Positions 2,139-33,221 of a stretch of DNA of 64,000 nucleotides are shown piece after piece. Each line of letters begins with the position of its first letter. Within the stretch, counting starts at the first letter, position 1. The stretch comes from Parcubacteria group bacterium (lineage in GTDB: Bacteria; Patescibacteriota; Minisyncoccia; Moranbacterales; UBA2206). The notes under the pieces are model-generated. The model was not told where the DNA came from and did not search any database. It saw only the letters and a list, made by a program, of their open reading frames with translations. A program made the position numbers and the translations under genes. The stretch lies in assembly GCA_041659505.1 (NCBI GenBank), contig JBAZYF010000005.1, forward strand, positions 57,779-121,778. Reading direction: 5' to 3'.

Positions 2139-2645
2139 ATGGAGAAAAGAGTCCTTTATGTCAAAGACAGCCGGTCTTTTTTTAGCCGGTCGATTTGTGG
2201 CATTGTTAGCCAGATATTTGCTGGCGGGTGGGAGATCGATGTGGTCAAATCTCCGTCCGCGGCGCTTGGGCTTTTAGAAAACAAATCTTACCAGGTTGTA
2301 ATTTGCGATTTCAATTTTGGGAAGCGGGAAATCAATGGTGTCGATTTTTTGTTTCGGGTGAGAGAAGTGAATCGCGACACGGAAACGATCCTTGTTGTCG
2401 GTGAATTTTATCGGCAATCGCCAACTCTAAAAATTGATGAACTGAAAATAGGGCTGGCGGTCGATTTTTTCTGGAAAAAGATCGGAAGAAGTGAGAAGAT
2501 AAGAAAGCGAGGAGAACAAATCCTTGCGCAACTTTTCCAGAAAAACAAAAGGATCAATGCGGCGGGCGTCTTTCACTTGCCGGAGGATCGGGGGAGCTGT
2601 GTCTCAGGGTGTCCGTGTTGTCAGCGGAGAGACGGACATGCCTGA
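2139..2645 (+). CDS. Atypical CheY-like receiver-domain protein with C-terminal Cys cluster
   Basis: Aligns to the CheY fold: YQVVICDFNFGKREINGVDFLFRVRE...TETILVVGE resembles [22 protein letters not shown]...LPVLMVTAE of CheY. The N-terminal acidic pocket is incomplete. The C-terminus is CVSGCPCCQRRDGHA. Confidence 0.45.
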   Translation: MEKRVLYVKDSRSFFSRSICGIVSQIFAGGWEIDVVKSPSAALGLLENKSYQVVICDFNFGKREINGVDFLFRVREVNRDTETILVVGEFYRQSPTLKIDELKIGLAVDFFWKKIGRSEKIRKRGEQILAQLFQKNKRINAAGVFHLPEDRGSCVSGCPCCQRRDGHA

Positions 2646-2801
2646 TGCTTTGTGAAAAATATGCAAAAGGGAAAAAGGTGAACGTGCCTGGTTCCCTTTT
2701 TTCTTTGGGAAAAAAAAGTTGCATAATATTTTGCTGGGTGTATGATAAAAAAATAACAACAAATGTGTCAGACAAACAATCTTTCAATAGGGAGGTAGAG
2801 A

Positions 2802-3004
2802 TGAAAGTAGCTGCGATTTGTGAAGAGTGCAAGGGGAGATGGGGCTGCTATAAGGATGATAGTCTTATAGCGAATGGGCTCTGTTCTTATTGTGAAGCAA
2901 AGGATTGTGTTTATCTGTTCCTTGAAAAATGTACCCATGCTCGTTCGAGCTTGGACTTAAAAAATAAATATGGACAAATGGAAATATTACCGGCGCAATT
3001 GTAA
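2802..3004 (+). CDS. Small cysteine-rich protein (8 Cys in 67 aa), first of three tandem paralogs
   Basis: Internal Met start preceded by the RBS gggaggtagagATG. CxxC-type spacing: CEECKG..C..C..C..C. Confidence 0.45.
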
Positions 3005-3036
3005 AAAATAGCAGAGTTGAAAGAGGGGGAGCGCAA

Positions 3037-3243
3037 ATGTTGAAAATGGAAGCGTGTAAGAACTGTTTTGGAAAAACCGGTTGTGTTTATGCTGGTTGTC
3101 TCAAGTCCTGTGTCCATTGTGCGCAAGAGTGTGAGTTTGGACGCGGGATGTGTTCATGCCATTGCTGTGAAAGACCGCCATTTGGCGTATCTTACAAAGG
3201 TTCTAGCGTTTTAGGTTTCATTATGTGGTCGGGTTTCGTGTAG
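3037..3243 (+). CDS. Small cysteine-rich protein (13 Cys in 68 aa)
   Basis: RBS aaagagggggag lies upstream. Sequence CKNCFGKTGCVYAGCLKSCVHCAQECEFGRGMCSCHCC. Confidence 0.45.
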   Translation: MLKMEACKNCFGKTGCVYAGCLKSCVHCAQECEFGRGMCSCHCCERPPFGVSYKGSSVLGFIMWSGFV

Positions 3244-3264
3244 ATGCGAAACGGGGAGGTTGAT

Positions 3265-3456
3265 ATGCTAAATGTAAAACTTTGTAAAAAGAGGGATTGT
3301 AACGGCCGGATCGGCTGTGAAGAAAATGGCAAGTTGATCGTAACTTGCCATGATTGCCAGGAAAAAAAATGTTCAGCAGGAGTCGCGGAATGTTTCTGTG
3401 ATTATCCAAAGGATTTTCCAAATTTCGCGTACTTCGGCCAGGTATATCATGCTTAG
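3265..3456 (+). CDS. Small cysteine-rich protein (10 Cys in 63 aa)
   Basis: RBS ggggaggttgatATG. Sequence CKKRDCNGRIGCEENGKLIVTCHDCQEKKCSAGVAECFC. Confidence 0.45.
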   Translation: MLNVKLCKKRDCNGRIGCEENGKLIVTCHDCQEKKCSAGVAECFCDYPKDFPNFAYFGQVYHA

Positions 3457-3621
3457 ACTAGACAGCAGGGGGAGGACCACGATCCTTTCCCTGTTTTAAT
3501 TTTTCGAAAAAAGCTTTTCTTGGCTTGATTAAACCGGATCAGTGTGCTAGAGTCTTTGGAGAGCCTGAATCGAGGCTTTTTGTTTTTTCAATAACCATTG
3601 CGACTGCAAAGGAGGGGTGAT

Positions 3622-3990
3622 ATGTCTGAAAAGAAAGCGAAAAATGTCATCGTGGTTGATGATGAAGAGTCCGTGATGGAGCTGATCGGAGGTTACTTGA
3701 AAACGATCGGTTTCCGATTATTCACCTTCACGGATCCGAAAGAGGCGTTGGCTTTTATAATCGACACAGAGGAAGAGATTCATCTCCTCGTGACGGATTA
3801 TAACATGCCAAAAACCAACGGAACCATATTGATGCAGGAGATGAGGGTTATGTCTCCGGGTCTCAAGACTGTCTGTATTTCTGGTCGGCAACGAGACGAA
3901 ATTGACGGAGTGGAGGAGTTTGACGGTTTTTTGGAAAAACCGTTCTTGCTGAGCAAGCTCAGATCACTGATCGAAAATTTGCTTCAGTAA
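3622..3990 (+). CDS. Single-domain response regulator (CheY-like receiver)
   Basis: RBS aaaggaggggtgatATG. Receiver motifs VIVVDDEESV...LLVTDYNMPKTNG...LEKPF. Confidence 0.8.
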   Translation: MSEKKAKNVIVVDDEESVMELIGGYLKTIGFRLFTFTDPKEALAFIIDTEEEIHLLVTDYNMPKTNGTILMQEMRVMSPGLKTVCISGRQRDEIDGVEEFDGFLEKPFLLSKLRSLIENLLQ

Positions 3991-4066: not shown

Positions 4067-4129
4067 CCACAAATTTTGCTTTTGTCAAGCCGTTGCGGGA
4101 TTGCGTAATTTTTTACGCGGCAGTATAAT
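4067..4129 (+). promoter_or_regulatory. Conserved operator-like palindrome ACAAA-N7-TTTGT (4069-4085) placed 15 nt upstream of a sigma70-like promoter (-35 TTGCGT 4101-4106, 17-nt spacer, -10 TATAAT 4124-4129); copy A
   Basis: Sequence read directly. A near-identical block CCACAAATTTTGCnTTTGTCAAGCC with the same 15-nt spacing to the -35 recurs at 9331-9392. Confidence 0.45.
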
Positions 4130-4243
4130 CAAAATATAAAATACAATTGAATACTATTTGAGAGACTTTGATCCGCACTGTGAAATGATTTTTTTTCGGA
4201 AATGATTGGTTGCCCAAAGCGCGCGCGGGGAGTTGATTGGCAA

Positions 4244-4304
4244 AACCGGCTTGAATTATTTAGCAATTTTTTTGCTATTTAATTTCAGCCGGTTTTTGTT
4301 TTTT
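4244..4304 (+). terminator. Terminator-like imperfect hairpin (AACCGGCTTGAATT...AATTTCAGCCGGTT) followed by T-runs
   Basis: Sits about 115-175 nt downstream of the 4124 -10 element. This delimits a candidate short transcript. Confidence 0.4.
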
Positions 4305-4417
4305 GAGAAATAAAACTAAAAATGAATCAGATGGAATTATTTTTTCGGGTGAGAAATAATGTTTCCGTTCTCAAGGGCCTGCCAATGGTTGCTACTTTTT
4401 TGTAGTTGCTGTTGGTG

Positions 4418-4477
4418 GGCTTTTTTTGTATTCTACGAATTACCTGCCTATGCTAAAGCTCCGGCAGGCAGGCGAAT
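4418..4477 (+). repeat. Conserved intergenic module T7-GTATTCTACGAATTA-CCTGCCTAT-loop-GGCAGGCAGG, copy 1 of 3
   Basis: Nearly identical to 9850-9910. A diverged third copy lies at 22624-22669. Confidence 0.6.
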
Positions 4478-4587
4478 TTTTACGAATGTACAAATAATCC
4501 GCCTCCTCTTCCGAGGGGCGAAGGGGATATGAATCAAGCGGGTGAATAATTTGAGATTATTGAGTTAAAATTTTTGATGAGTATCCA

Positions 4588-5601
4588 ATGAAAATAATAG
4601 GATTAAAATTAGTTGTTGTGTTGGTTTCCCTGGTTGCTTTGGCGGGGATTTCTACTTATGTGACAAAGGGCTATCAACTGCCGAATATTTTTGGTGGCGA
4701 TAATAACAGCCATGAAGACACGAACGGACACGATGATGGAAATAATAACAACGGAAACGACAAGAAAGAAACAAAGGTTGATTTTAGGATTAGTAGCCAA
4801 TGCCACTATTATAACTATGATCCGCAAAATTCCGTCGCTTTTTCAGGGGGAGATTTGGCGGGATATGTCGATGTTGGATGTTTTTCGGACGGTCAAGCTT
4901 TTGGCAGTTGGCAGGAAACTGGAACGAACCATCTGAATAAATTTTTCAATTTCGACAATATTAAGCCTGGTGACCGCGGTGAAGACGCGATCAGTTTTCA
5001 CATTTTGGGCGATGATGGTTGCGGGCAGATCACTTTTGAAAACATAAAGGATGATGGAAATGATTGCACCGACTCGGAAACTCAGAGCAGTGATCAGGAC
5101 TGCAAAAATAGAACACCGGGAACGCGAGAAAAAAGAGGGGAATTGGGAAAGGCTTTGCAATTTTCTCTTTGGCTGGATCAAGGACGGACGCCGGGCTTCC
5201 AAGGCAAAACTGATCCGGGTGAAGGGGATAATATTTTCAATGAAAAAGATGTTTTGATTTCCGACTGGAAAGATATTCGGGAATTTTCCACAGCTCTTGA
5301 GATCAGAAAATGTTTGCGCCAAGCGCGCAATAAGTTTTTCGATCTTTGCAAATCGGCAGATCCCAATGGGAGCGGGAGAAATACCAAAAAAGGAGTTTGC
5401 GCCGGACTTTCCACCGATGGCAGGATGGTTGATGGAACGGTCTATTATTACGGCCTAGCTTGGCGCTTGCCGGGTGAAACAGGGAATGAAATTCAGTCGG
5501 ACAGTTTGGGATTTGATATGGCTTTTCAAGTAAAGAGCAACAGTCAATGCAGTGTTTGCCAAGGCAAGGATTATGACCATAATGCCAGATGTGATGATTA
5601 G
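4588..5601 (+). CDS. Secreted hypothetical protein (signal/anchor, N/D/G-rich low-complexity region, Cys-rich C-terminal domain)
   Basis: N-terminal hydrophobic segment LKLVVVLVSLVALAGI, then NGHDDGNNNNGND, and multiple Cys downstream. First gene after the long structured intergenic region. Confidence 0.6.
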   Translation: MKIIGLKLVVVLVSLVALAGISTYVTKGYQLPNIFGGDNNSHEDTNGHDDGNNNNGNDKKETKVDFRISSQCHYYNYDPQNSVAFSGGDLAGYVDVGCFSDGQAFGSWQETGTNHLNKFFNFDNIKPGDRGEDAISFHILGDDGCGQITFENIKDDGNDCTDSETQSSDQDCKNRTPGTREKRGELGKALQFSLWLDQGRTPGFQGKTDPGEGDNIFNEKDVLISDWKDIREFSTALEIRKCLRQARNKFFDLCKSADPNGSGRNTKKGVCAGLSTDGRMVDGTVYYYGLAWRLPGETGNEIQSDSLGFDMAFQVKSNSQCSVCQGKDYDHNARCDD

Positions 5602-5776
5602 GATATGGTTAGGGAGAAAATTTTCAAAAACAAGCAATTTTAAGATATGGGGTGAGCTCGGTAACTTCGCCTAAGGCGGACACCGAGGAACAAATTTTTA
5701 AAGGTCGAGAGAGGCAGACTACTCCTGAGTGTCTGGAATAATTAACAATTAATTAACTAGAAATAAACAATAATTT

Positions 5777-7369
5777 ATGAAAAAGATAACAAAATCGCTT
5801 TTGATGATCACCGCGGCTGCGGCAATCGTGATCGGCGGAACAAGCGCGTTTTTTTCCAGCCAAAAGGCTGCCGTAAACAACACGTTCAAAGCAGGAACGC
5901 TTAATTTGCAGTTGGCAAAAGATAATCATGGCGTTCCAACTGGGGGATGGCAGGATGTGAGTATTGATGCTAATTGGAATTTTCCAGACATGGCTCCGGG
6001 AGAAACTCCTCAAGAGGCGACAATGTGGTTGAAAAACAATGGAAGTATTGACGCGAAAAAATTAGGATTCTCCATAACTAACGCTAATGATGATAATACT
6101 GGATTTGAAAGGCAAGTCCGTATCACTAAAATGACCTTTGACGGGCAAAATATGCTCCAAGGTGGTGCAGGTGCTGACCAATCAGTCTATGTGAAACCGA
6201 CTCACTGCGATATCAATGTTAATCCTGGCGCATATTCTACTATCAATGCTGCTCTAGAATCTTTAGGATCAGCAACTGGTAAAGTAATTTGCGTTGGCCC
6301 GGGTAATTATACGACTAGCTATGAAACCAATGCAATCATAATTAATCAAGGTGTTACATTAGTATCCACCGATGGGCCTGGAGCAACAACCATTAGTGCA
6401 TCAAGTACTACTGCAGGCGTTACCATCAATGCTGTCAATGTTACAATAAAGGGATTTACTATTGCTCCTGATAAAACTTTTGTCGGATATGGTGCAGCAA
6501 TTGCAGTTAATTATGGCGGAGCTAAAATTCAGGATAATGTGATAACTGACGTAAAAGGAGATGGTCAGGGGACAATAAAAGGTATCCACGCCTTTACTGG
6601 ATCTGCTTATAGTAATTTAGAAATTACGAACAATGTTATAAAAAATATTGCTAATACAGGCAAGGGAGCGGATGGGATTATGATTCAAGGTAAGATTAGC
6701 ACAATAAATATTACTCACAACACAATCACTGATATTAGTTCAAATAATACTAATAATACATGGGATTATGCAGCGGGTATTGAGGATACGCCAACTAGCA
6801 ATCTGGCCGATTCTTCGCCTCTAGGTTTGACGATTACTTATAATCACATTGAGAATGTAACTAGCGTAACTGAATTAGGCAGAGGATTCACAGTTGACAT
6901 TGTGAATTGCAATGATTCGGTAAAGGGCACGAATAATTATGCCTACGCTGACCAGGTTACTTTTAAGAAGAATGATATAATTGGTATAGCAAATCCAATT
7001 ACCAACAAGGATCAACGCACGACTTCTAATGGAACATTGAATGCAGAAGATAATTGGTTTGGTGATTTTACTCCTGTGGCTAATCTAGGTGGAGTGGCAA
7101 AGTGTGAGACTGGCGTTGTGAACACAACAAATTTTGCCGGTGGACCATTTGCTGGTTTTGTTGGCGGTACAGACCAAAATAGTAATGGTTTTGCCGATAT
7201 GCAAGACTTGCGGTTGACTCCGATTGCTGGAATGCCAGTGGCCTTCGCTCATTCAGCGGAAAAACGTTTTGTGATGGGCGTGCAAGTTGACGGACCAACA
7301 ACACTTGATAATTTTCAAGGCGCGAGTCTACACAATGTGGATTTGACTGTAACTATGTTGCAACAATAA
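5777..7369 (+). CDS. TasA/camelysin-like secreted protein with SipW-cognate-class signal peptide and parallel beta-helix (PbH1) repeats
   Basis: The N-terminus AAAIVIGGTSAFFSSQKAAVNNTFKAGTLNLQL matches the TasA/camelysin N-terminal signature (GGT.A.F.D...N.F..GTL.L). The middle region has repeated VTINAVNVTIKGFTI / IQDNVITDV / ITNNVIKNI / ITHNTITDI strands typical of a right-handed beta-helix. Confidence 0.7.
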   Translation: MKKITKSLLMITAAAAIVIGGTSAFFSSQKAAVNNTFKAGTLNLQLAKDNHGVPTGGWQDVSIDANWNFPDMAPGETPQEATMWLKNNGSIDAKKLGFSITNANDDNTGFERQVRITKMTFDGQNMLQGGAGADQSVYVKPTHCDINVNPGAYSTINAALESLGSATGKVICVGPGNYTTSYETNAIIINQGVTLVSTDGPGATTISASSTTAGVTINAVNVTIKGFTIAPDKTFVGYGAAIAVNYGGAKIQDNVITDVKGDGQGTIKGIHAFTGSAYSNLEITNNVIKNIANTGKGADGIMIQGKISTINITHNTITDISSNNTNNTWDYAAGIEDTPTSNLADSSPLGLTITYNHIENVTSVTELGRGFTVDIVNCNDSVKGTNNYAYADQVTFKKNDIIGIANPITNKDQRTTSNGTLNAEDNWFGDFTPVANLGGVAKCETGVVNTTNFAGGPFAGFVGGTDQNSNGFADMQDLRLTPIAGMPVAFAHSAEKRFVMGVQVDGPTTLDNFQGASLHNVDLTVTMLQQ

Positions 7370-7473
7370 TCCGGTTTTCCAAAAAACAAACAAATTGAAA
7401 ATTGATTTGGGCGTTTTTACCCTTGCGCATCTTCGGATGGGCAAGGGGATAAAGCGGGTCAATAAAATAATCC

Positions 7474-8118
7474 ATGATTGATATTGCAATGCTTGGAAAG
7501 ATATTCAAATTCAGTATGAATACGATTTTGTTCGGGCTTGTCGTTTTAGGCGCTCTGGTCGTTTTTTCGTCCGTGCCTTTCGCGGGAAACTATAAGGCGT
7601 TTATCGTGATGTCCGGTTCAATGGAACCGACCATCCACACGGGCAGTATCGTTTTTGTCCGTCCGGAAAAAGCCTATGCCGTCGGAGATATCGTGACGCG
7701 AAGATTCGCCGATTCCGATCTAACGGTAACGCATCGTATTTTTTCCCAAAAAGAAGTTGATGGACAGGTAATTTTTGACACGAAAGGGGATGCAAATGAT
7801 GGCGAAGACAATGCAACAGTCACGTCGGCGGATATTATCGGCAAAGAAATCACTGCCGTGCCCTATGTCGGTTATGCAGTGGCTTATGCCAAGACGGAAA
7901 TGGGACTGTTGCTCATTATTGTCATCCCGGCGGTGATTGTTATTTATGACGAGTTGAATAAAATCAGAACGGAAGTCGCTTTGATGCGAAAAAAGAAAAA
8001 AGAAGAAAAGGAGGCAAAAACACGAGTGGCGGAAGAAACGAAAATAACATTTCCGGAAAGGCAGTATGTGCGGGGGATTGTTAATGCGCCGGTTGAGAAG
8101 AGGAGAAAAATTGTCTAA
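7474..8118 (+). CDS. sipW: Signal peptidase I, SipW/archaeal-ER type (S26B)
   Basis: N-terminal TM segment, then VMSGSMEPTIHTGSIVFV carrying the catalytic Ser motif, then ...THRIF...GDANDGEDN. C-terminal TM segment and a K/E-rich tail. Confidence 0.8.
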   Translation: MIDIAMLGKIFKFSMNTILFGLVVLGALVVFSSVPFAGNYKAFIVMSGSMEPTIHTGSIVFVRPEKAYAVGDIVTRRFADSDLTVTHRIFSQKEVDGQVIFDTKGDANDGEDNATVTSADIIGKEITAVPYVGYAVAYAKTEMGLLLIIVIPAVIVIYDELNKIRTEVALMRKKKKEEKEAKTRVAEETKITFPERQYVRGIVNAPVEKRRKIV

Positions 8119-8126
8119 AGGCGAAT

Positions 8127-9128
8127 ATGGAAAATATTATTAACAGTAGAAAAAGAATCAATCGTTCGATCAAAAAGATCGGAGTGGCTTTGTTGTTTTT
8201 GTTTTTTGCTTTGAGCAGTTTAAAAATGCCGGGAACTAATTCTTTTTTCACCGGGCGGGCGAAAAATAGCGGAAGTTCTTTTTCGGTCGGGACGTGGATT
8301 CCGACTTTACGAATGTCTGTGGATATCCCAATGCCGGAAGATGAGATTTACAAAACAAGGCCGTGTGTGACGCTCGACGCGGATATTAGCGGTGAACATT
8401 CCGGTATTACGATTTGGTATAAATTTTCAGATGATGGTTTATTTTCTGAGTGGATAAAATACGACGAAGAATGCGTGCTGATTCCTGATGGTAACCCGAC
8501 CAATTTTGTGGCGCAAGCTATCAATGATGAACAACCGGAACGCTGGAAAAGCCAGACTGTTTCCGGCATTTTCAGGGTGGATACGACTGCGCCTGTTGTT
8601 AGGATTAACGCTCCGGCGCAGCCTTCCGATCTTTCCGGCACAGTAGCGGTGCGTGGTATGGTGACAGATGCCCATCCCGATCACTATTGGCTGGTGGTGG
8701 AAAATTCTTCCGGAACCCAAATCGCCGGACCGGGAACGGTAAATGATACCAGCTCTTTTTCGGACAAGAAATTTTTTGATTGGGATACGACCAAGGTGCC
8801 GGACGGAAAATATACAATCAAATTGGAAGCGCGTGACAGATTCGGAAATAAGTTGCCAAATCAATCGCCAGTGCTTTTTGACCCGAACAAAGATAATGAT
8901 AGCGTAGATTGGATAGAGGTTAATGTGAAAAATAGTTCGGCCAAAGCGTCCAAGCCTGCAAGCTCTCCTATCAGTGCTCCAACCGCGCCTGATCCAGGAC
9001 TGCAATTCCAAGAATCCGCAGATTTGGGTGTGCAAGGTGAGGCTGATGAAGTGCCGGCGGAAAAAAATGGTGAAGCTGCTTTGGTGCTAAAAGAGGCAGA
9101 GGCGCCAAGTTTGTCGGGAGAAGAATAG
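8127..9128 (+). CDS. Second secreted protein with SipW-cognate-type N-terminus (GTNSFFTGRAKN...GTW) and Ig-like/Pro-Ala-rich C-terminus
   Basis: N-terminus IKKIGVALLFLFFALSSLKMPGTNSFFTGRAKNSG resembles the TasA-class signal. Located immediately downstream of sipW. Confidence 0.6.
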   Translation: MENIINSRKRINRSIKKIGVALLFLFFALSSLKMPGTNSFFTGRAKNSGSSFSVGTWIPTLRMSVDIPMPEDEIYKTRPCVTLDADISGEHSGITIWYKFSDDGLFSEWIKYDEECVLIPDGNPTNFVAQAINDEQPERWKSQTVSGIFRVDTTAPVVRINAPAQPSDLSGTVAVRGMVTDAHPDHYWLVVENSSGTQIAGPGTVNDTSSFSDKKFFDWDTTKVPDGKYTIKLEARDRFGNKLPNQSPVLFDPNKDNDSVDWIEVNVKNSSAKASKPASSPISAPTAPDPGLQFQESADLGVQGEADEVPAEKNGEAALVLKEAEAPSLSGEE

Positions 9129-9166
9129 AGGCTTCTATAGAGGCCTCTATGGAAGCCTCTAAATTT
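9126..9166 (+). terminator. Nested perfect palindrome TAGAGGCTTC-TATAGAGGCCTCTATG-GAAGCCTCTA
   Basis: 10-bp outer and 12-bp inner inverted repeats overlapping the stop codon of the 8127..9128 gene. Confidence 0.5.
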
Positions 9167-9197
9167 TAGTAAGATTAAAATATTTTTTTCTTTTTTA

Positions 9198-9223
9198 CAG
9201 CTGAAATTTCAGCTGTTTTTTTG
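9198..9223 (+). terminator. Rho-independent terminator (CAGCTGAAATTTCAGCTG + T7)
   Basis: Perfect 7-bp stem followed by a T-run. Confidence 0.55.
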
Positions 9224-9330: not shown

Positions 9331-9392
9331 CCACAAATTTTGCCTTTGTCAAGCCAAAATTTGCTTGACAATAATTTGGCAATTGATAGAAT
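9331..9392 (+). promoter_or_regulatory. Conserved operator-like palindrome ACAAA-N7-TTTGT (9333-9349) 15 nt upstream of a strong sigma70-like promoter (-35 TTGACA 9365-9370, -10 TAGAAT 9387-9392); copy B
   Basis: Same architecture as 4067-4129. Confidence 0.45.
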
Positions 9393-9570: not shown

Positions 9571-9849
9571 ATAATCCGATTCGAATCTACGAATGAATGC
9601 GAATCTACGAATAAAAGAATAAAAGAATAAAATGCAAATTTAAATAGTGGGTGAGGAAAAATAAAAATAAAAAAGGTACCAAAAATAAAAAGTTGAAAAA
9701 GGAGGAATAACGTTGAAGCTGTAGTTTTACATAATGCTAAAGAGTTAGTCGGTGATGATTTCTTGAAGCCAATTTGGTCGCTTGTTTCCGTTTTTGGCGG
9801 AATAAGTTTCAGGAAGGAGCCAATAGCGAAACCGGACTGCGGGTCAGTG

Positions 9850-9910
9850 CCGGTTTTTTTGTATTCTACGAATTACCTGCCTACGCTAAAGCTTCGGTAG
9901 GCGGGCAAAT
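9850..9910 (+). repeat. Conserved intergenic module T7-GTATTCTACGAATTA-CCTGCCTAC-loop-GGTAGGCGGG, copy 2 of 3
   Basis: Matches 4418-4477 at about 52 of 57 nt. The stem differences (T to C on one side, C to T / A to G on the other) still allow pairing. Confidence 0.6.
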
Positions 9911-10160: not shown

Positions 10161-10649
10161 GTGCGAAATAAAATGAAAAAAATTACAATGCTAAGCGCAA
10201 TCGTTTTTGCTTTTGTTATGACTGCTAATTTGGCGTTTGCTGGAACTGGCAATATGCAAATGAACAGCGTCCAAAATTCTGACAACGGAGTTTCTTCGAT
10301 GGCAACAACTGGTGATAATTATATCAATCAGGCTTTCTCAGGTGGAGGTGCTTACGTTAGAACGGGATCAGCGGTATCTTATACAGCCGGTGTAGCTGCG
10401 ATGAACACAAATGTAGCTGTCAATGGTGGCGCTATGCAAGTTGGCACCGTCAAGGGTTCCACAAACTATGTTCAATCAGGTGCTGGAACAGGAATGAATC
10501 AAATTAACCAGAACATGGTTCTTAGGGGTGGATCAATGGTGAATACCGGAGCAGCAGTTTCAGGTGCAAAGGGGATTTCTCTGATGAATACTAATGTTTC
10601 AGTCGGATGTCCTTGCACAACTAACACCTGCAATTCTTGCAGACGCTAG
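10161..10649 (+). CDS. Secreted repeat protein, family 'NSGDN/TGD...NTN[IV]', member 1; C-terminal CPC...C..C
   Basis: Signal peptide MKKITMLSAIVFAFVMTANLAFA. Repeats TGDNYINQAFSGGGAYVRTGSAVSYTAGVAAMNTNVAV and GAGTGMNQ...NTGAAVSGAKGISLMNTNVSV. Confidence 0.6.
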   Translation: MRNKMKKITMLSAIVFAFVMTANLAFAGTGNMQMNSVQNSDNGVSSMATTGDNYINQAFSGGGAYVRTGSAVSYTAGVAAMNTNVAVNGGAMQVGTVKGSTNYVQSGAGTGMNQINQNMVLRGGSMVNTGAAVSGAKGISLMNTNVSVGCPCTTNTCNSCRR

Positions 10650-10710
10650 TTTTTTACAAAAAATTTTCCCAAGCGGAGACTAGCCTCCGCTTGGGGGGAA
10701 AACAAAGATT

Positions 10711-11226
10711 ATGTCAAAAAAGTTATTTATAAAATCGATCAATTGTCTTTCAATCTTCGCGCTGGTGTTTTTCTGTGGAATAAATTTGGTTTTGGCCAAG
10801 GAAAATAGCAGTGTGAATGTGGAAAGTCGGGTGAGCGCGACGGCGAATTCGGGTGGGAATACAATTTCTGGTTCCGGCACGATCACGACCGGCGATGCTA
10901 GTGCTTCTGCAAAATCGATTACTTTAGTCAATGGCGGGGAGAATGTGAAAATAGTGACGGAAGCGAGGGCGGAAACGGGCGGAAAGAATTCAACGGCCAG
11001 TGTGGAGGTGAATGGCGAAAAAGCGGTTTGCGCCGGTGATGATGACGGTTGCGAAGTGGAAATCAGCAGTGAGGCCGAGCTGGCCGAAGAAGAAAGGATC
11101 TTTCAAGAAGAGAAGCAGATCGAAGAAGCGATCGACTTGGATGAAGTAGAGCCGGAAAAAAATTTTGGCTCTACGGTGCAAAATTTTTTTTCTGGGATAG
11201 TGGGGAAAATAAGGAGTTGGTTTTGA
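10711..11226 (+). CDS. Secreted repeat protein, same family, member 2; acidic C-terminal tail
   Basis: Signal peptide, then ATANSGGNTISGSGTITTGDASASAKSITLVNGGENVKIV. Confidence 0.6.
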   Translation: MSKKLFIKSINCLSIFALVFFCGINLVLAKENSSVNVESRVSATANSGGNTISGSGTITTGDASASAKSITLVNGGENVKIVTEARAETGGKNSTASVEVNGEKAVCAGDDDGCEVEISSEAELAEEERIFQEEKQIEEAIDLDEVEPEKNFGSTVQNFFSGIVGKIRSWF

Positions 11227-11233
11227 ATAAAAG

Positions 11234-11276
11234 TGTCATCCTGAGCGAAGCCCGTACTTGGACGCTCAGGATGACA
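11234..11276. repeat. Perfect 14-bp inverted repeat TGTCATCCTGAGCG / CGCTCAGGATGACA with 14-nt loop; related half-sites recur downstream (CAGGATGACAG at about 11291, GGGAATGACAAG at about 11313)
   Basis: Read directly. No T-run follows. Sits between the genes for family members 2 and 3. Confidence 0.5.
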
Positions 11277-11397
11277 ATTAGGGTTCAGGATGACAGAGAA
11301 AATGCGGGAATGACAAGGAGAGTGGCGGGGTATCTTTCTAAGGTTTCTCGTCAAGATAGGAATAATAATGCGAGGTTTTTTGTTAAGGGTGAGGAAT

Positions 11398-14184
11398 ATG
11401 CAAAAAATATCGGATAAAATTTTGAATAATGCGCTGGTGCTTCTGGTAATTTTGAACTTGGCCAGCTATCAGGTTGTTTTGCCGATTGCTATTTCGCGCG
11501 CGGATGATACAGACAGCGGGACAACGACAGAGGTGAAGGCGGAGGAAAGTTCTTCTGACTCGGACTCTGGGGCGGATAAAGAGGATGAAAAAATAGAGGA
11601 AGAAAAAAAGGCTGAAGTAGATGAGAAAGAAGACGCGACCACAGAGGAGAAAAAGAGCGATCTGAAAGTTGCTGAGCCTGAAGTCAAGCCAGTGCCGGAA
11701 GTTGATTTGGTGACAACTGGTGCGGGTTCGGCGGATGCCGATGAACCTTTGGTGGTTTCCGATGATGCAGTTTCGGCGGTTATCCAAAGCGACACGGCCG
11801 CAGAAGTTGAGGCCGAAAATACTTGCGCGTGCCAAAAAGATCCGGAGGAGAATAATGATGAAGAAAAAACTTGCTCGAGCGATTGTGCTTGTGGCCAGCC
11901 GGCAGATTGCCAATCAGCTGTGGTGCAGACGAATGTGGCACAGGAAGTGATCAACACAACGGAAGCTGTCGCGGTTACGGGCGAAAATACGATTGCGGGG
12001 GTAGTCGCGGGAATGAATTCAACAGAAGTTGTAGAACAAAACAGCGATCAGGTACAGGATGCTGATACTGATAATAATGCTGATAGAAATACTAATAAGG
12101 ATAATTCCGAGCCGGAAGCTAGCGAGGAAAAGCAAGCTCAGATCATCACGGGCGACGCCACTGCCGGAGCAGTGGCGGTCAATGAGATCAATACCAATAT
12201 CTACACGGACAACGGTGTGCAATATCAGCAAAATATCACAGGCGATTTTACCGGCGACATCAATCTGATCGAAACTTTCGACAGTGTTTTGGATAGCGCG
12301 CAAAAATTGAACGAAGAAAATCAAAAAGCGTTGGAAAAGGTGACGGTGACAAATGTGAACGTAGCGGAAAAAGTGGAAAATACGGTTCTGGCGAACGCGA
12401 ACAGCGGGGATAATTTGGTTGAGGCGCTAGACTCCGCGGCGGAAATCGTGACCGGTAGTGCCCAGGCGCTGGCGGGCGCGGTTAACTATATCAATACGAA
12501 CATCGTTGGAAATAATTGGCTTTTTGCGCAGATTAATATTTTGGGCAATTGGACGGGGGATTTAATCGTGCCGGGAGAAGGGCTGTTCGAACTGCCTTCG
12601 GCGGGAATGGTTTTTGAAAACATCACCAATATTAATCTGGCCAAAAGTATTACTAACTTTCTTTCTTCTGATGCGAACTCGGGGGATAATTCAGTGACTT
12701 CCGCAACGGGTGATGTGATGGTGGCAACGGGAGACGCGACCGCGACGAGTAATGGAACGACGCTGGTCAATACGAACATCGCTAATAATAATTGGTTCTA
12801 TCTTTTGATCAATAATGCCGGCAATTGGACCGGGCAAGTCTTTAATTGGAACAATGGCAACGCCAGTTTGGCGTATGAATATAATTTTGGCAGTCAAATG
12901 GGAGCTGACGCGCCAGTGACAAAAAGTGTCAGCGTGAATAATTATAATAGCGCGGAAGAGGTTAGCAACACGGTTGTGGCTCGGGCGAATACCGGTGAGA
13001 ATTCTATCTCCGAGGTAGTAGGCGATGCGACAATCGCGACGGGGGACGCGGTGGCGCGTGCCAGTGCGTTTAATTTTATCAATACGAACATCGTCGGCAA
13101 TAATTGGTTTATGGCGGTGGTGAATAATGCCGGCACGTGGAACGGGGATTTGGTTTTTGGTTATCCGGATCTGGCGGTGGATCTGTCAGCGGATAAAAAT
13201 ACGCTTGAGCCGGGGCAGAGTTTGACTTATGCCGTGAAGTATAAAAATAGCGGCCAGGCAAAATGTGGGAATGTTGAGCTGATGCTGTCACTGCCGGATA
13301 ATTTTTTCTACCAATCAGATAGTCTAGGTGCAGCGCGCAAAAACGGTAATGACTATTTTTGGTCCGCACCGGGCCTCAAGGCGGGAGAAGAAAAAACTTT
13401 TAGCGTGACGGTATTGCTCGATCCAAACACCGGAGCAAACGTGGCGTCTTTGGAAAGTGTGGCGGGAGTAAAAACGGACACGCAAGAAGTGGCGCTGGCG
13501 AATAACTATGCCAGTGAAAAAACCGATCTTATCTTTCTGGCTGATTCAAGTGTGATGATCCAAAACGGATTGCCGGAAAAAAATGGCAAGCTTTCTGTCA
13601 CACGACAAGAGGAGGCAACCGTTGCCGTCGGATCGATTTCCGGTCATAGTATTTTTGTCAAAAATTCCGGCAAGGACACACTCTATAATCTGGAAGTCAA
13701 AGAGGCAATCAAAAATCCGTCCGGAGAAACGATGGTGGAATATGTCTGGCCGATCGAGAAATTGAAAAAGGGCCAGACGGCGACGATCCAATATCAGATC
13801 TTTGTCGATCCAGCGATGGCATTAGGCGACTATAAATATGTTGCTTCTGCTGTGGCAATTGATTATTATGGCCGCCAAGTAGAAAGTAAAAAAGCTTCCA
13901 AGACCGTAGCGTTTATTGGAGGTGCTCCAGGTCAAACAAACGCATACGCTAGTGATGAGAATGGTTTGATTTCTCCCGAAGCTGTTTTAGCGCCAGAAGA
14001 AGTGAATACTATTCCGGAAGTTTTGGGGACAGCCACAGAGGCGAATAAAATTGCTTGGCAATGGTTTCTAGTACTCATGCTTGTCCCACTGGCTTTTTAT
14101 GCCCAACGAAAAGAGATTTATCGTTGGGAAACTATCCAGAAATTTTCCAGACAGATGGGCAGTTTTTTGAGTTCGTTTTTGTAA
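11398..14184 (+). CDS. Large surface protein: signal peptide, acidic region, three ~90-aa 'NSGDN...TGDA...NTNI.NNW...GNWTGD' repeats, DUF11/CARDB-like domains, C-terminal TM anchor
   Basis: RBS ggtgaggaatATG at 11398. Repeats begin at NSGDNLVEALDSAAEIVTGSAQALAGAVNYINTNIVGNNW, NSGDNSVTSATGDVMVATGDATATSNG...NTNIANNNW and NTGENSISEVVGDATIATGDAVARASAFNFINTNIVGNNW. DUF11-like stretch LTYAVKYKNSGQAKCGNVELMLSLP. C-terminal WQWFLVLMLVPLAFYAQRKE. Confidence 0.7.
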   Translation: MQKISDKILNNALVLLVILNLASYQVVLPIAISRADDTDSGTTTEVKAEESSSDSDSGADKEDEKIEEEKKAEVDEKEDATTEEKKSDLKVAEPEVKPVPEVDLVTTGAGSADADEPLVVSDDAVSAVIQSDTAAEVEAENTCACQKDPEENNDEEKTCSSDCACGQPADCQSAVVQTNVAQEVINTTEAVAVTGENTIAGVVAGMNSTEVVEQNSDQVQDADTDNNADRNTNKDNSEPEASEEKQAQIITGDATAGAVAVNEINTNIYTDNGVQYQQNITGDFTGDINLIETFDSVLDSAQKLNEENQKALEKVTVTNVNVAEKVENTVLANANSGDNLVEALDSAAEIVTGSAQALAGAVNYINTNIVGNNWLFAQINILGNWTGDLIVPGEGLFELPSAGMVFENITNINLAKSITNFLSSDANSGDNSVTSATGDVMVATGDATATSNGTTLVNTNIANNNWFYLLINNAGNWTGQVFNWNNGNASLAYEYNFGSQMGADAPVTKSVSVNNYNSAEEVSNTVVARANTGENSISEVVGDATIATGDAVARASAFNFINTNIVGNNWFMAVVNNAGTWNGDLVFGYPDLAVDLSADKNTLEPGQSLTYAVKYKNSGQAKCGNVELMLSLPDNFFYQSDSLGAARKNGNDYFWSAPGLKAGEEKTFSVTVLLDPNTGANVASLESVAGVKTDTQEVALANNYASEKTDLIFLADSSVMIQNGLPEKNGKLSVTRQEEATVAVGSISGHSIFVKNSGKDTLYNLEVKEAIKNPSGETMVEYVWPIEKLKKGQTATIQYQIFVDPAMALGDYKYVASAVAIDYYGRQVESKKASKTVAFIGGAPGQTNAYASDENGLISPEAVLAPEEVNTIPEVLGTATEANKIAWQWFLVLMLVPLAFYAQRKEIYRWETIQKFSRQMGSFLSSFL

Positions 14185-14215
14185 TTGATAAATAATTTTT
14201 TATATTTAAAACAAA

Positions 14216-17200
14216 ATGAAAAGGGTGAGAAAAAATGGACGCCGCTGGGCGTCGAAGATTTTTAGTATCTGGGTGATTCTTCTCCTGTTATTTCAGCCGA
14301 TCGGCACACCAGGAATGTTGGCGATCGCCGAAGAGTTGTCGCCTGCGCCGACGGTTGAAAAAGAAGCTTCTAAAGAAGCTTCTAAAGAAGATCCTAAATC
14401 AGAGGAGAAAGTTGAGGTTGAAAAAGAGGCGCCGAAAGCGGAAGTCGTTGCTCCGGTAGAAAAAACTGATCCGGTGCCAGCACCAAAAGAAGAGCCGAAG
14501 GGCGATCCAGTCGTTCCCGTTGAAAAACCGGCCGAAAAAACTGAACCTGCTGCCGCTGGCTCCATAAGCGATCCGATTGTCGAGGCAGAACCAGCAGGAG
14601 AAATTACCCCCGAAGCGGCTTCCACGGAAAAAGTTGATGGTGCAAGCATAACAGCTTCGGAAATGCCGAAAGTGGAAACGCCCGTCGAAGATGCTCCAGA
14701 TTTGACACAAGAAGTAAAAAAAGAAACTTGGTCGGTGGATGGCAAAAAAGCTACAACTAATGAACCGGTCGAACTGGAGAAGGAATATAAATTTCCGGGC
14801 GATGAGGATGTGAGCGTAAGATTTACGAAACTGCCGGAAAAGCCCGGCACGCTTTCGATCGAAGAGATTGGATTGAGTGATAAACAAGTGGAAGAGCTGG
14901 GCGCGCTTTCTAAGATTGCCTATGACATTACTTCGACGATGGAGGACGGCAGTTTTGAGTATGACTTGAGTTTGCCAAAATCAAAAGATGATAAGAATGT
15001 CCAAGTAAAATTTGCCGAAAAAATTTCCGAGCTGGATGATGCGAGAATTATTTCCGCTGATGATGTGACGGAAAAAAATGATTCGGTGAATGTGGAAAAG
15101 TTGGATCATTTTACGGTGTTTGTGGTAGTGGAGTGGAATTTTCCCAATAACCCAGACAATTCTATTGCCGATGATGGAATCGCTTCTAACCTGGCTAGAA
15201 ATATGACAGTAGTAGGGGCGACAAACTTGTTATTTAGTTCCTCTGGCGCAACAAGCAATTCAGCTTCTGCTGATCATTGGAATGGTGGTTCCGGAATAAA
15301 GTATTGGCAAGTCGAATTTGATTCCTCGGGCTATAATTCCATAAGATTATATTCCAAGCAAAGAAGTTCCAATACCGGTCCTCGAGATTTTAAAATTCAA
15401 TATTCTACTGACTCTGGGTCTGATTGGGCGGATATTTCAGGCGGTAATATAGTTGTTGCAAATAATTATACGGCAGGAGTTATCGCCGAACTTCATTTAC
15501 CTACTCAATGCAATAATCGCGCATCTGTCTATTTGCGTTGGATTATGACATCGGATACTTCAGTCAGTGGCGGAGCTGTTGGAAATACTGGCGTGAGTAA
15601 TATTGATGATATCATAGTTAAGGGTGAAGAAATAGAAATCGTACCAGATGCAGACGGAGATGATGTTCCAGATTCACAAGACAATTGTATCAATACTCCA
15701 AATGGCCCAAAGCAAATAAACGACAATCAGCTGGATGATGACGGTGACGGACTTGGCAATGCTTGTGATATATTGAATTGTATAGCCACAGGCGAAGAAA
15801 GCTGTAACGATTTGGTGGATAATGATTGCGATGGAGAAATCAATGAAGATTGTGTGATTTCTTTTTGCGGAAATGGAACAGTCGATTTCGGTGAGGACTG
15901 TGATATCAACTCACAAAAGCAAGCTTGCCTTACTGACGGCGGATATCCCGGAGAGATAACTTGTGGCGAAAGCTGTTCGTGGAATAATTATTGCTATCCC
16001 ATAGCGGGATGCGGAGACGGAATTATGAATGGACCAGAACAGTGTGATGACGGAAATGAGATTTCTGGCGATGGATGCGAAAACGATTGTACAGTCACTC
16101 CACAAGCTGAATTTTGCGGAGACGGGATTGTGAACGGTGATGAAAAATGTGATGATGGGAATGTCGTGTCGGGTGACGGTTGCAGTGCGAGTTGTGAAGT
16201 TGAAAAGACTGGTTCGATTTCCGGCAAAAAATTTGAAGATTGTAGTGCGAACGGAATATTTGATCGTTGTGAACAAGGGATGCGTGGTTGGGCAATTTTT
16301 ATTGACAAAAACAATGATGGAATTTTGGACCCGGAAGAAAATGTCGCATTGACCGGCAAGGGGGGTTATTATATTTTTACCAATCTTTATCCGGGCACTT
16401 ATCGTATTTGCGAAGCGTCCAAAGCCGGTTGGATCCAGACAGCACCCGGCGAAGATGGATGTCACGAAGTGGTTTTGAACGGGGAAAGATTGACCGGATA
16501 TGATTTTGGAAATTTCAAATTGGGCACAGTGTCTGGCCGAAAATTCAACGATCTTAACGGCAACGGTTGGAAAAATTTCAATGAGCCCTATCTCAATGAT
16601 TGGACGATTAGACTGTATGATTCCACTTGGCAAAAAGTGGCGGAAACCGCAACGGCGGGAAGTGGTTGGGAAAAAGGTCAATATAGTTTTGATAGCCTTG
16701 AGCGCGGAACGAATTATATCTGCGAAGCGATGAGCGAAGGTTGGGAGCAGACTAGTCCGAAAAACGGCTGGAGCGTGGTAAACAATCTTTCGGGGATGGA
16801 GGATGAGGGCGCGAAATGTTGGAAGGTAGAGGATACTTGTTCAGGGAACGTATTTGCCGGAAAAAGTTTTGGCAATCATTTCACACCGCCTGCGCCGACG
16901 GGAAAAATTTCTGGCGTTAAATTTGAGGATACCAATGGTAACCAGCTGAAAGAGGAGAGCGAAGCAAAGCTTTCCGGCTGGACTATCTATCTGGATGCAA
17001 ATAATAATTCGCAAAAAGATCCGGGCGAGCTAAACACGATCACAGATGCTAATGGCTACTATGAATTTGTTGGACTGACGCTGAGGAATTATTATGTGCG
17101 CGAAGAGAATCAGGCTGGTTGGATACAAACTACGCCCTATCACAACAATGGCGCCTATTATGTCTCGCTCAACAAATGTCACCTGGAGGCGGGCGGAATG

Positions 17201-19339: not shown

Positions 19340-19515
19340 CAGATATCCCCTTCGCCCTTAGGGAGAAGGTGGCCGAAGGCCGGATGAGGGAAAGGGCGTT
19401 ACATTGAGATAAAACTAAATTAGCTTAGATCATTCCTAGTGCATAGCCCTTGCCCTCACCTGTCACGTGCTCGTGACATCCTCTCCCGAAGGGCGAGGAG
19501 GAAATAGTATTCCAT

Positions 19516-20151
19516 ATGCTAGTTAGCGGAGAAAAAAAGCAGAGAGTTATTTTTAGGGCAGGAATATTTCTGGTTGCCTTTTCTCTGCTTTTATTTTTTT
19601 TAATCTTTTATCCGGTTATCAAAACGGAAATCGGTTTTCTTTTTTCCGCTAAAAAACCAGACGTGAAGATCGGGTTGGTTGGAGCAGGCAATGAAGTTTC
19701 TGGTGACGTGATTATTCCGGCGAGTTCGGACTTCAGCTTGATCATTCCGAAGCTTGAAATCAATTCAAAAGTGGTTGCCAATGTTGATCCGTTTTCTGCC
19801 AAAGATTATCGTGAAGCGTTGAAAGAGGGTATTGCCCATGCCAAGGGGACGAGATTGCCTGGCGAGGATGGAAATATTTTTATGTTCGCGCATTCCTCGG
19901 GAAATTTCTATGATACGAACCGGACGAATACGCTTTTTTTTCTACTGAATAAATTGGAAAAAGACGACAAACTTTCAGTGGTGTATAAAAATAAAATCTT
20001 TCGCTATCAAGTGGCAGAAAAAAAGATCGTGGCTGGAGATGCGGTAGAATATCTCAAGGATGAGAGGGATGAAGAAAGTTTGACGCTGATGACTTGCTGG
20101 CCGCCGGGGACGGATTATGAGCGACTGATCGTTGTGGCGGAAAAAGTCTAA
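19516..20151 (+). CDS. Sortase-family transpeptidase
   Basis: N-terminal TM segment. Conserved His in IFMFAHSSGNF, catalytic Cys in LTLMTCWPPG (TLxTC motif), and Arg in RLIVVAEKV. Directly downstream of the LPETG protein. Confidence 0.75.
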   Translation: MLVSGEKKQRVIFRAGIFLVAFSLLLFFLIFYPVIKTEIGFLFSAKKPDVKIGLVGAGNEVSGDVIIPASSDFSLIIPKLEINSKVVANVDPFSAKDYREALKEGIAHAKGTRLPGEDGNIFMFAHSSGNFYDTNRTNTLFFLLNKLEKDDKLSVVYKNKIFRYQVAEKKIVAGDAVEYLKDERDEESLTLMTCWPPGTDYERLIVVAEKV

Positions 20152-20729: not shown

Positions 20730-21002
20730 TAAAAAAAGCGTCTTTTAGGTGATGAGCAAGTGACCGGTTACGCCACTGACTTCCCGTGGTTCAAGGCGTC
20801 CAAAATAAGGACCACGGTTCAACGTCTTCACTAACTCTAAAAATTAAAATCTTAGGTACTTGGTTCACATTATAGTTATTTTCCCTTTTCTGTCAATTTT
20901 TCCAGCGCCTAGACAAGTATTGGCTTGAAATAAGCTTATTTAGTGCTAGTATTTTTTAGACATTTTTCAAAAAAAAGAAATTTTTGGTCATTTTTCATCC
21001 GC

Positions 21003-24853: not shown

Positions 24854-24928
24854 ATTTAAACATCCTGCTGAGTCCCGCTGGCCGGGAATCGTCCTTGTGG
24901 GGACGAATCTGACAGGATAAAAATAAAA

Positions 24929-25441: not shown

Positions 25442-25447
25442 AAAAAT

Positions 25448-27912: not shown

Positions 27913-27953
27913 TTTTTAATTTAATTTTTCTAAGTTGATTTGTTTACAGCTAT

Positions 27954-28343: not shown

Positions 28344-28347
28344 AAAT

Positions 28348-29418: not shown

Positions 29419-29435
29419 TCCATTTTTAGAATTAG

Positions 29436-30659: not shown

Positions 30660-30675
30660 AAGCAAGAAGTGTGAT

Positions 30676-33212: not shown

Positions 33213-33221
33213 GTTGAAAAA

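Follow-up and report, generated by a model that had tools for sequence, protein, structure and literature searches.

Within tapA-sipW-tasA, an operon of Bacillus subtilis, the gene for a dedicated signal peptidase of the archaeal or endoplasmic reticulum (ER) type lies between the genes of its substrates. TasA, the prototype of its family, has a jelly-roll fold, serves as a structural protein of fibres and polymerises by donor-strand exchange (PMC9674648), and TapA has been proposed to supply a donor strand (PMC9674648, PMC10151520). An aromatic residue at position P2' of the cleavage site makes TasA incompatible with, or a poor substrate for, the peptidase LepB (PMC10269814). Among archaeal members of the superfamily, AbpB has been proposed as an initiator or tip adhesin (PMC9245690); peptidases of the TIGR02228 type adjoin TasA-superfamily genes, for instance AbpX, and the Tafi loci encode tip and anchor accessories (bioRxiv 10.64898/2026.01.04.697558). 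TasA homologues in Patescibacteria were already noted from Pfam mapping (PMC9245690). Here we analyze a stretch of 64,000 nucleotides (nt) from a Parcubacteria group bacterium (contig JBAZYF010000005.1, positions 57,779 to 121,778), hereafter the window, in which the region 4588-9128 appears to be one operon of the candidate phyla radiation (CPR, or Patescibacteria), encoding a surface-fibre system of the TasA superfamily together with its own processing enzyme. We give this reading a probability of about 0.6; whatever is said below on the formation of fibres, on enzymatic activity or on the binding of ligands is computational prediction.

The region consists of four open reading frames (ORFs) on the forward strand, all confirmed at the following positions: P1 (4588..5601, 337 amino acids (aa)), a divergent TasA-fold protein; P2 (5777..7369, 530 aa), a TasA-family subunit whose N-terminus is SipW-cognate and which has a beta-helix nested in it; SP (7474..8118, 214 aa), a SipW-type signal peptidase I of the archaeal/ER type with a long basic C-terminal tail; and P4 (8127..9128, 333 aa), an accessory protein resembling TapA and AbpB. 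A scan for terminator-like sites found none in the short gaps between these genes, the sites listed at 5314-7156 falling wholly within the coding sequences of P1 and P2, and two terminator-like hairpins at 9126..9216 on the same strand (9126-9161 with 16 pairs, and 9197-9216 with eight pairs and a T-run) close the operon directly after P4. Thus P1, P2, SP and P4 look like a single operon. Proteins identical to those of this locus have been deposited from a metagenome-assembled genome (MAG) of a "Parcubacteria group bacterium", P2 under the NCBI name "TasA family protein" and P1 and P4 as "hypothetical". This CPR origin bears out a remark in the preliminary description of the locus, which was made from the letters alone, that the module resides in a minimal genome.

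The same description likened the locus to the Bacillus operon. The logic of the module does agree: the peptidase gene is again placed between substrate genes, the main subunit belongs to PF12389 and has an N-terminus of the TIGR04088 type, and the accessory protein, like TapA, shares only the N-terminal donor-strand-like motif and consists beyond it of a beta-sandwich body with an acidic, disordered tail. The order of genes does not agree, since here it is tasA-like, sipW, tapA-like, and the host is a CPR bacterium. Unlike its counterpart in B. subtilis, SP falls below the cutoff of the SipW equivalog model (115.6 bits, with 190 required), the main subunit has a nested beta-helix of ~300 aa, an additional TasA-fold paralogue lacks a donor strand, and the predicted regulator is a riboswitch instead of SinR.

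SP is a signal peptidase I of the archaeal/ER type (SipW-type, MEROPS S26B). Its score against TIGR02228 sigpep_I_arch is 109.3 bits (E 1.6e-31; curated cutoff 51.85), with residues 17-162 aligned to positions 9-156 of the 158 in the model, whereas the bacterial LepB-type model yields just 19.6 bits (cutoff 47). Since SP passes TIGR02228 and misses the cutoff of NF046067, the equivalog model of Bacillus SipW, we regard it as SipW-type and not as an orthologue of the Bacillus enzyme. Enzymes of the LepB type use a Ser-Lys dyad, those of the ER/archaeal type Ser-His(-Asp), and the motifs of SP are of the latter type (SGS49MEP, TH87RI and GD106AND); following mutagenesis work on SipW, we take S49, H87 and D106 to be catalytic. 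The family search thus upholds the S26B signature that had been read from the strings SGSMEP, THRI and GDANDGEDN, which indeed start at residues 47, 86 and 105, and the transmembrane segments reported at both ends of the protein coincide with hydrophobic segments at residues 10-40 and 135-164. Solely from the conserved adjacency of the genes, we infer that SP cleaves the signal peptides of the adjoining proteins.

P2 matches PF12389 (Peptidase_M73) at 27.8 bits (cutoff 22.5), the match being limited to residues 2-117, that is, profile positions 4-108 of 196, and TIGR04088 (cognate_SipW) at 24.9 bits (cutoff 19) in residues 13-42. Both scores agree with the assignment of its N-terminus, quoted correctly as IGGTSAFFSSQKAAVNNTFKAGTLNLQL, to the TasA/camelysin type and to the SipW-cognate class. 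The signal peptide and the predicted donor strand occupy residues 1-46 (5777..5914, forward strand), with the presumed cleavage site between …IGGTSA and FFSSQKAAVNNTFKAGTLNLQL; this site was placed by alignment to TasA, where we take it to lie between …TWA and AFND. Some homologues are annotated by JGI as [quoted passage not shown]. We rejected this label, which is merely the name of the signal model and comes with no evidence of a ribosomally synthesized and modified peptide.

The AlphaFold2 model of P2, a single-chain prediction from 12 homologues (pLDDT 82.7, pTM 0.81), shows beta strands at residues 44-121, a long right-handed beta-helix at ~146-410 (by DSSP) and three last strands at 483-528. 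Residues 12-38 are disordered in the model (pLDDT <50), which fits a strand that would be exchanged between subunits and is modelled here in a monomer; the observation is compatible with exchange and not diagnostic of it. The Foldseek search with the whole model is dominated by the beta-helix and is silent on the jelly-roll part: the PDB matches are PL6 lyases, CE8 pectin methylesterases, an alginate lyase and RbmB (E 1e-5 to 1e-3; 7o79, 4pmh, 3grh, 1ofm, 6kfn and 9ozl at probability 1.00), with 10-17% sequence identity and low TM-scores, and the matches in the viral database BFVD are pectate-lyase or tailspike-like proteins. P2 itself matches none of the Pfam beta-helix families, and its homologue P0009 passes Pfam Beta_helix (28.1 versus 25.9). 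Searches of PDB sequences with P2, P1, P4 and the P1-family profile gave no meaningful match. PL6 enzymes are characterized by a Ca2+ site with Lys/Arg, and CE8 enzymes by Asp/Asp/Gln/Arg; in the P2 subclade, the conserved charged motifs TIKGIH, GKGxDGIM, WDYAxGIEDTPT and EPGRGFxVD suggest a functional groove.

The preliminary description had P2 continue from its N-terminus into a pectin-lyase-like beta-helix. The fold is supported by the structure prediction; the C-terminal continuation is not, as four lines of evidence indicate that the right-handed parallel beta-helix (residues ~134-425, 6176..7051 on the forward strand), with ~290-340 aa, is nested within the predicted jelly roll between its N-terminal half (~1-133) and its C-terminal strands (~470-530). 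One is the layout of strands in the AlphaFold2 model. Another is the rise in the Peptidase_M73 score from 27.8 to 32.9 bits after removal of residues 136-469, seen also in three homologues, a gain that is modest, leaves the best stretch N-terminal and alone is not decisive. Further, hhalign places the N-terminus of the P2 family on the P1/TasA family at a probability of 98%, and the best local match of the P2 C-terminus is the terminal "N-x-Q-x-x-s-l…Q" strand of that family (E 0.01). Finally, a custom profile of 31 insert-deleted frames (~230 aa) revealed the C-terminal match: it aligns in two collinear pieces with a pair of small TasA proteins of the canonical CPR kind, 203 and 197 aa long and both assigned to PF12389, one piece covering the N-terminal residues 1-105 (E 8e-20 and 1e-11) and the other, at the extreme C-terminus, residues 144-194 (E 0.003 and 4e-5). 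The family motifs GGAGA and NWWG/NWFG mark the borders of the insert. In the TasA fold, the variable middle comprises ~40 aa in the small CPR proteins, ~150 Cys-rich aa in P1 and ~340 aa, helix and linker together, in P2. For B. subtilis TasA we take it to be ~125 aa; a TasA sequence from this species served as a rough probe and carries no weight.

Proteins with such a nested helix form a family. A hidden Markov model (HMM) scan of 1.84 billion cluster representatives (50% identity) produced 453 matches below 1e-30, and among the best 150 of these are ~40 full-length proteins (460-630 aa) that have this frame in common and inserts measuring 233-327 aa. Conservation of the donor-strand region AFFSxxAxxTGNxFxAGTLxL extends to the entire nested family. 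The identities of frame and insert are decoupled: compared with P2, the protein P0076 is 53% identical in the frame and just 31% in the insert, while P0003 is 38% identical in the frame and 44% in the insert, which suggests that the beta-helix has been swapped between TasA frames. Giant proteins of 2,000-7,700 aa (P0066, P0087, P0097, P0118, P0179 and others) contain 4-13 repeats of the P2-type helix, which is also fused C-terminally to complete P1-like TasA domains (P0110, P0114, P0120). In a third group the helix stands behind another N-terminus, "ALIPYFxxITGxVTV" (P0011, P0115, P0132). By its fold, the region ~146-410 of P2 resembles PL6, CE8, RbmB and pectate-lyase enzymes and the depolymerases of phage tailspikes, and by its apparent exchange between conserved frames it resembles phage receptor-binding modules. 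Unlike in the trimeric tail proteins, however, the helix of P2 sits in a fibre-subunit fold, and the likeness is one of fold.

In the preliminary description, P2 and P4 were the two TasA/camelysin-like fibre proteins of the locus. For P2 this stands; P4 shares the N-terminal motif alone, and the second TasA-fold protein is P1, which had not been described. P4 starts with a TasA-like signal and donor-strand-like N-terminus, in which the quoted PGTNSFFTGRAKN...GTW is indeed found, and continues with two immunoglobulin (Ig)-like domains and an acidic, low-complexity, disordered tail. Its relationship to the P2 N-terminus is evident at the family level: the P4 family consensus past the signal peptide is GTNAFFSDxAxxxGNSFSAGxWIPTL (compare AFFSxxAxxTGNxFxAG in the P2 family), TIGR04088 is passed by five of 10 family members, and the HMM of insert-deleted frames matches several P4-like N-termini. 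The remainder of P4 is not TasA-like, as there is no match to PF12389 and a weak one to Big_7 (Ig-like) in residues 156-232, and the homologues have two Ig-like domains that are usually followed by a lamin-tail (LTD) domain, in place of which P4 of the window has its acidic tail. P4 is therefore better compared with TapA and AbpB than with TasA, in the sense that it may work like them, the comparison being set by layout rather than by homology to TapA.

According to its structural model, P1 is a second and divergent protein of the TasA fold, in which the N-terminal motif has been lost. It has a hydrophobic N-terminus, a disordered spacer rich in N and D and a Cys-rich middle module, and it contains no donor-strand motif. 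The sole significant fold match of the AlphaFold2 model (pLDDT 80, residues 28-58 disordered) in the PDB is the TasA fibre 8AUR (8aur_A, E 3.4e-4). Homologues of P1, down to 30% identity, grade into proteins that have PF12389 and the canonical AFFSDTETSTGNTF N-terminal motif, the canonical N-terminus among them reading "AFFSDTETSTGNTFxAGxLDLKVDS". PF12389 is carried by 11 listed homologues, and of the 22 aligned family members 10 pass TIGR04088 and six match the NCBIfam TasA model, none of them from the clade of P1 itself. Members of that clade have, in place of the donor-strand segment, a spacer that varies in length, is rich in N, D and G and is modelled as disordered. Elsewhere, P1-like genes adjoin other TasA-like genes or an operon for a DUF11 protein similar to that at 10161-14184 of the window.

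The cassette of P2-type, peptidase and P4-type genes is conserved across Patescibacteria. In all 10 loci with enough flanking sequence (L001, L002, L006, L008-L013 and the window; L007 was excluded, as its contig ends), the beta-helix-TasA gene is immediately followed by the SipW-type gene, and a P4-like gene stands directly after the latter wherever the sequence continues. All of these loci come from Patescibacteria, namely Paceibacteria, Doudnabacteria, Moraniibacteriota and MAGs with the label "Saccharibacteria". Locus L005 has a simpler set, in which two small TasA genes are accompanied by SipW and a P4-like gene. The comparison of CPR loci, which the preliminary description had proposed, thus shows a P2-SipW-P4 order kept in 10 of 10 cases; the accompanying idea that the Bacillus logic had been transplanted here is not shown, and the cassette is widespread and conserved within Patescibacteria.

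The locus can further be compared with the TasA-superfamily filaments of archaea, that is, the AbpA/AbpB bundling pili, AbpX, Tafi, cannulae and threads. As in these, donor-strand complementation is the expected mode of polymerisation of the jelly-roll subunits, and the archaeal loci, like this one, encode accessory tip or adhesin proteins and anchor proteins (PMC9245690; bioRxiv 10.64898/2026.01.04.697558). The archaeal subunits, however, are compact (~160-200 aa when mature) and have no enzyme-like insert, and PDB sequence searches detected no similarity of P1 or P2 to the archaeal filaments.

Transcription of the operon is probably gated by a riboswitch of the c-di-GMP-II class (c-di-GMP, cyclic diguanosine monophosphate), for which a candidate aptamer, below the Rfam threshold, is located at 4152..4260 (forward strand). 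The preliminary description had placed the module downstream of a structured, repeat-bearing regulatory region, and such a region, with this aptamer and an overlapping terminator, does exist. The forward-strand aptamers were found by permissive Rfam scans. The one upstream of P1 scores 23.7 bits against RF01786 (E 0.005), with the full model (1-84) matched and an insertion of 44 nt in the P3 loop. A second candidate, at 9739-9846 (+) upstream of the next operon, is likewise sub-threshold and full-length (30.7 bits against the GAG-variant model, cutoff 40), and a third, at 20753-20838 (-), is over the RF01786 threshold at 60.2 bits. As covariance models do not score pseudoknots, the pseudoknot is an independent check on these candidates. 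In all three copies, UUGG-N5 of the P3 loop pairs with N5'-AACCGG of the 3' tail (ACGCC/GGCGU, UCGCU/AGCGA and UUGCC/GGCAA), with compensatory changes at three of the five pairs; the pseudoknot of 4152-4260, UUGG-UUGCC / GGCAA-AACCGG, is perfectly complementary. In a pattern test of both strands of the window, the composite pseudoknot pattern occurred at these three sites only.

The aptamer is followed by a hairpin with a U-run that resembles an intrinsic terminator (4239..4305, +), the 5' arm of which overlaps the aptamer 3' strand. The minimum-free-energy fold of 4140-4312 builds this hairpin from AAAACCGGCUUGAAUUAUU (4243-4260), a segment that is needed by the P1 stem and the pseudoknot of the aptamer, and in both forward-strand aptamers the 3' strand doubles as the 5' arm of a hairpin with a U-run. 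Because the 3' strand is common to aptamer and terminator, ligand binding is predicted to prevent termination (an ON switch). Thus the element resembles other c-di-GMP-II riboswitches (RF01786) in its consensus secondary structure, in the register of the pseudoknot (UUGG-N5 / N5'-AACCGG), in the terminator laid over the 3' strand and in its association with surface-appendage genes, whereas its P3 insertion and low score set this predicted aptamer apart from typical ones. A c-di-GMP-II ON switch reportedly precedes a type IV pilin gene of Clostridioides difficile. That the organism uses c-di-GMP is hinted at by a PilB homologue in the window (26242-27912), a type IV pilus ATPase of the T2SSE family with an MshEN domain (27.5 bits), which we take to be a c-di-GMP-binding domain.

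Several other elements are present in the leader, all on the forward strand. The motif CAAATTTTGCYTTTGTCAAGCC (4070..4091), possibly part of a promoter or operator region, recurs in the leader of the next operon at 9334-9355; it has two matches in the window and none in 100 shuffles. A candidate promoter, TTGCGT-17 nt-TATAAT (4101..4129), was read by eye 22 nt upstream of the aptamer and is no more than a suggestion, having been missed by the consensus scanner because its -35 hexamer matches at three of six positions. Downstream of the first terminator, there is a second strong hairpin with a U-run (4373..4434), and the fold of 4300-4600 reaches -93.1 kcal/mol (z = -4.4 versus shuffles). It is followed by the element GUAUUCUACGAAUUACCUGCCUA with its hairpin (4428..4472), repeated at 9861-9906. 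The 23-mer at 4428-4450 occurs in exactly two copies in the window, the other at 9861-9883, and in none of the shuffles; the exact motif that the two leaders share here reads GTATTCTACGAATTACCTGCCTA, after which the hairpin follows. A metagenome scan for the leader 21-mer, from this second shared motif, returned a single unrelated contig (L038).

We propose the following scheme for the system. P1, P2 and P4 would be exported by Sec, and SP would cleave P2 and P4 just before the FF dipeptide. By analogy with TasA, the freed N-terminal strand of P2 may then enter the jelly roll of the next P2, resulting in a fibre that would display a glycan-binding or glycan-cleaving beta-helix on every subunit. 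P4, which combines a donor-strand-like N-terminus with the lack of a TasA body, might prime the first subunit and provide a tip or adhesin at one end of the fibre. P1, an acceptor fold without a donor strand, could accept a strand and could not donate one, and so would cap or anchor the opposite end; its hydrophobic N-terminus, if uncleaved, would anchor the fibre as well. Binding of c-di-GMP to 4152-4260 would permit read-through past the terminator. At its boldest, the scheme describes a donor-strand fibre specific to the Patescibacteria lineage, a polymerised "tailspike" with exchangeable beta-helices, an Ig/LTD tip, a donor-less TasA cap or anchor and a c-di-GMP riboswitch, by means of which episymbionts grip or digest the surface polysaccharides of their hosts; in this full form we offer it as a speculation that may well prove wrong.

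Other readings of the same genes have to be weighed. P2 could be a monomeric carbohydrate-active enzyme or lectin, secreted or on the surface, in which the TasA frame is just a scaffold for SipW-dependent export and folding, no fibre is formed, and P1 and P4 act independently. The beta-helix is after all the largest part of P2 and the one modelled with the highest confidence, it resembles enzymes of the PL6, CE8 and RbmB types, it is found beyond the nested frame in giant repeat proteins and in C-terminal fusions to P1-like domains, and fibre formation by P2 is something that we infer. Yet without strand exchange it is hard to explain why the donor-strand region AFFSxxAxxTGNxFxAGTLxL is conserved family-wide and why a P4-type partner with the same motif is strictly linked, and the structurally characterised members of the TasA superfamily all polymerise by donor-strand complementation in the papers cited above. 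We therefore consider a monomeric P2 rather unlikely. It is much less probable that SP is simply the general signal peptidase of the cell and its neighbours ordinary Sec substrates without a dedicated system. Reduction has affected many genomes of the CPR, archaeal-type enzymes are found there, and P1 has no special cleavage motif; but all 10 loci, which represent several CPR classes, keep the order of the three genes, P2 scores over the cutoff of TIGR04088, the curated model of SipW-cognate signals, and the FF after the predicted cleavage site is a feature that LepB handles poorly (PMC10269814). As for the name of the Pfam family, Peptidase_M73, taken literally it would make P1 and P2 metalloproteases of the camelysin type. 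This we regard as highly improbable and have rejected, since the translations contain no HExxH or similar zinc motif and TasA, the prototype of the family, has a structural role in fibres and a jelly-roll fold (PMC9674648).

A number of observations nevertheless tell against a riboswitch-controlled operon for a P2-based fibre. The insertion of 300 aa in P2 might block the stacking of subunits, and the C-terminal half of the protein matches TasA profiles weakly. P1 passes no curated model, having no direct match in Pfam and NCBIfam, PF12389 and TIGR04088 included, and a P1-like gene adjoins the cassette in this window only; P4 of the window itself has no TIGR04088 match. The aptamer upstream of P1 is far under the RF01786 gathering score (23.7 versus 53.5). 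The distance from the first terminator to the P1 start codon is 283 nt, and the second terminator-like hairpin (4373..4434) that lies in between makes the tie between riboswitch and operon weaker. An Rfam E-value scan of four related loci found no c-di-GMP-II element, and no diguanylate cyclase was found among the Pfam-scanned ORFs of the window, which comprise all but 54748-55305, 55516-56016 and those shorter than 150 aa. The low score, the spacing with its second hairpin and the lack of conservation in related loci would also fit an upstream element that is not a functional c-di-GMP riboswitch here, being instead a decayed copy, a sensor of another ligand or a separate short terminated RNA. 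On the other hand, the match extends over all 84 positions of the model, the intact pseudoknot shows compensatory changes, no site besides the three Rfam matches has the composite pattern, and the layout of aptamer and terminator is repeated at 9739-9858. We hold a non-functional element to be a serious possibility that falls short of an even chance, and retain the riboswitch-gated fibre operon as the preferred reading.

The two other aptamers also precede genes for surface or secreted proteins. The riboswitch at 20753-20838 (-) is directly upstream of the gene of a secreted CAP/SCP-domain protein (20148-20729, -). A second CAP protein is encoded at 64-957, and CAP genes adjoin the TasA modules of L002 and L004 as well. 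The aptamer with terminator at 9739-9858 (+) is located ~300 nt before the gene starting at 10161, with more hairpins and a possible promoter in between. Here begins a series of surface-protein genes (10161-19339), encoding proteins of 162 aa, 171 aa, 938 aa (DUF11) and 1707 aa (an LPXTG adhesin), after which a sortase is encoded at 19516-20151. The two small secreted proteins (10161-10649 and 10711-11226) and the 938-aa DUF11 protein (11368-14184) share "SGDN…TGDA…NTNI/V" repeats and belong to no known family besides DUF11. The same trio, with 158, 180 and 899 aa, is directly upstream of the P1-like gene in L004, and P1 may work with the trio at 10161-14184 as well.

The ORF of 1707 aa (14216-19339) has an LPXTG sorting signal at residues 1337-1369 and reads on in frame without a stop into the signal-peptide-like MKIFILVFVFGSLAISGGNALA and a second surface protein with a C-terminal hydrophobic anchor of its own; it may represent two sortase substrates read as one. 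The intergenic region after this gene (19343-19502) is 85-98% identical to positions 637-689 and 7114-7270 of the unrelated metagenome contig L038, so that a small element, mobile or repeated, may be present here. At 23708-34348 lies a complete type IV pilus cluster, with genes for PilM and PilO homologues, for two T2SSE ATPases, the PilB-like one and another that is PilT-like, for a PilC-like T2SSF protein and for five N-methyl pilins with a prepilin peptidase. Upstream of the TasA operon, between the genes of two stand-alone response-regulator receivers (2139-2645 and 3598-3990), there are three tandem small ORFs (2609-3456; 131, 68 and 70 aa) that are rich in CxxC-type cysteine pairs, the first of them read only in its Cys-rich C-terminal part; a Pfam scan of 2609-3004 and 3244-3456 gave no match. 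Finally, the protein of 489 aa encoded at 62269-63738 has a weak pectate-lyase-like beta-helix match (Pect-lyase_RHGA_epim, 24.8 bits, cutoff 27).

In the literature searched, we found no paper that ties c-di-GMP-II riboswitches to the CPR or to TasA-type operons, and four features appear to be undescribed there: a beta-helix that is both nested and exchangeable, the cassette conserved in the CPR, a paralogue without a donor strand, and the riboswitch context. Discussion of how CPR episymbionts attach to host cells and exploit them has centred on type IV pili as the main appendage. The locus points to a second conserved appendage system in these organisms, in which the donor-strand principle of TasA would be combined with an enzyme-like domain on each subunit, and the three-gene cassette offers a concrete unit for heterologous expression. 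If this is true, the TasA jelly roll tolerates the insertion of a whole domain in its variable middle, which would be relevant to the engineering of functionalised TasA fibres, and the control of surface structures by riboswitches of the c-di-GMP-II type would extend to the candidate phyla radiation.

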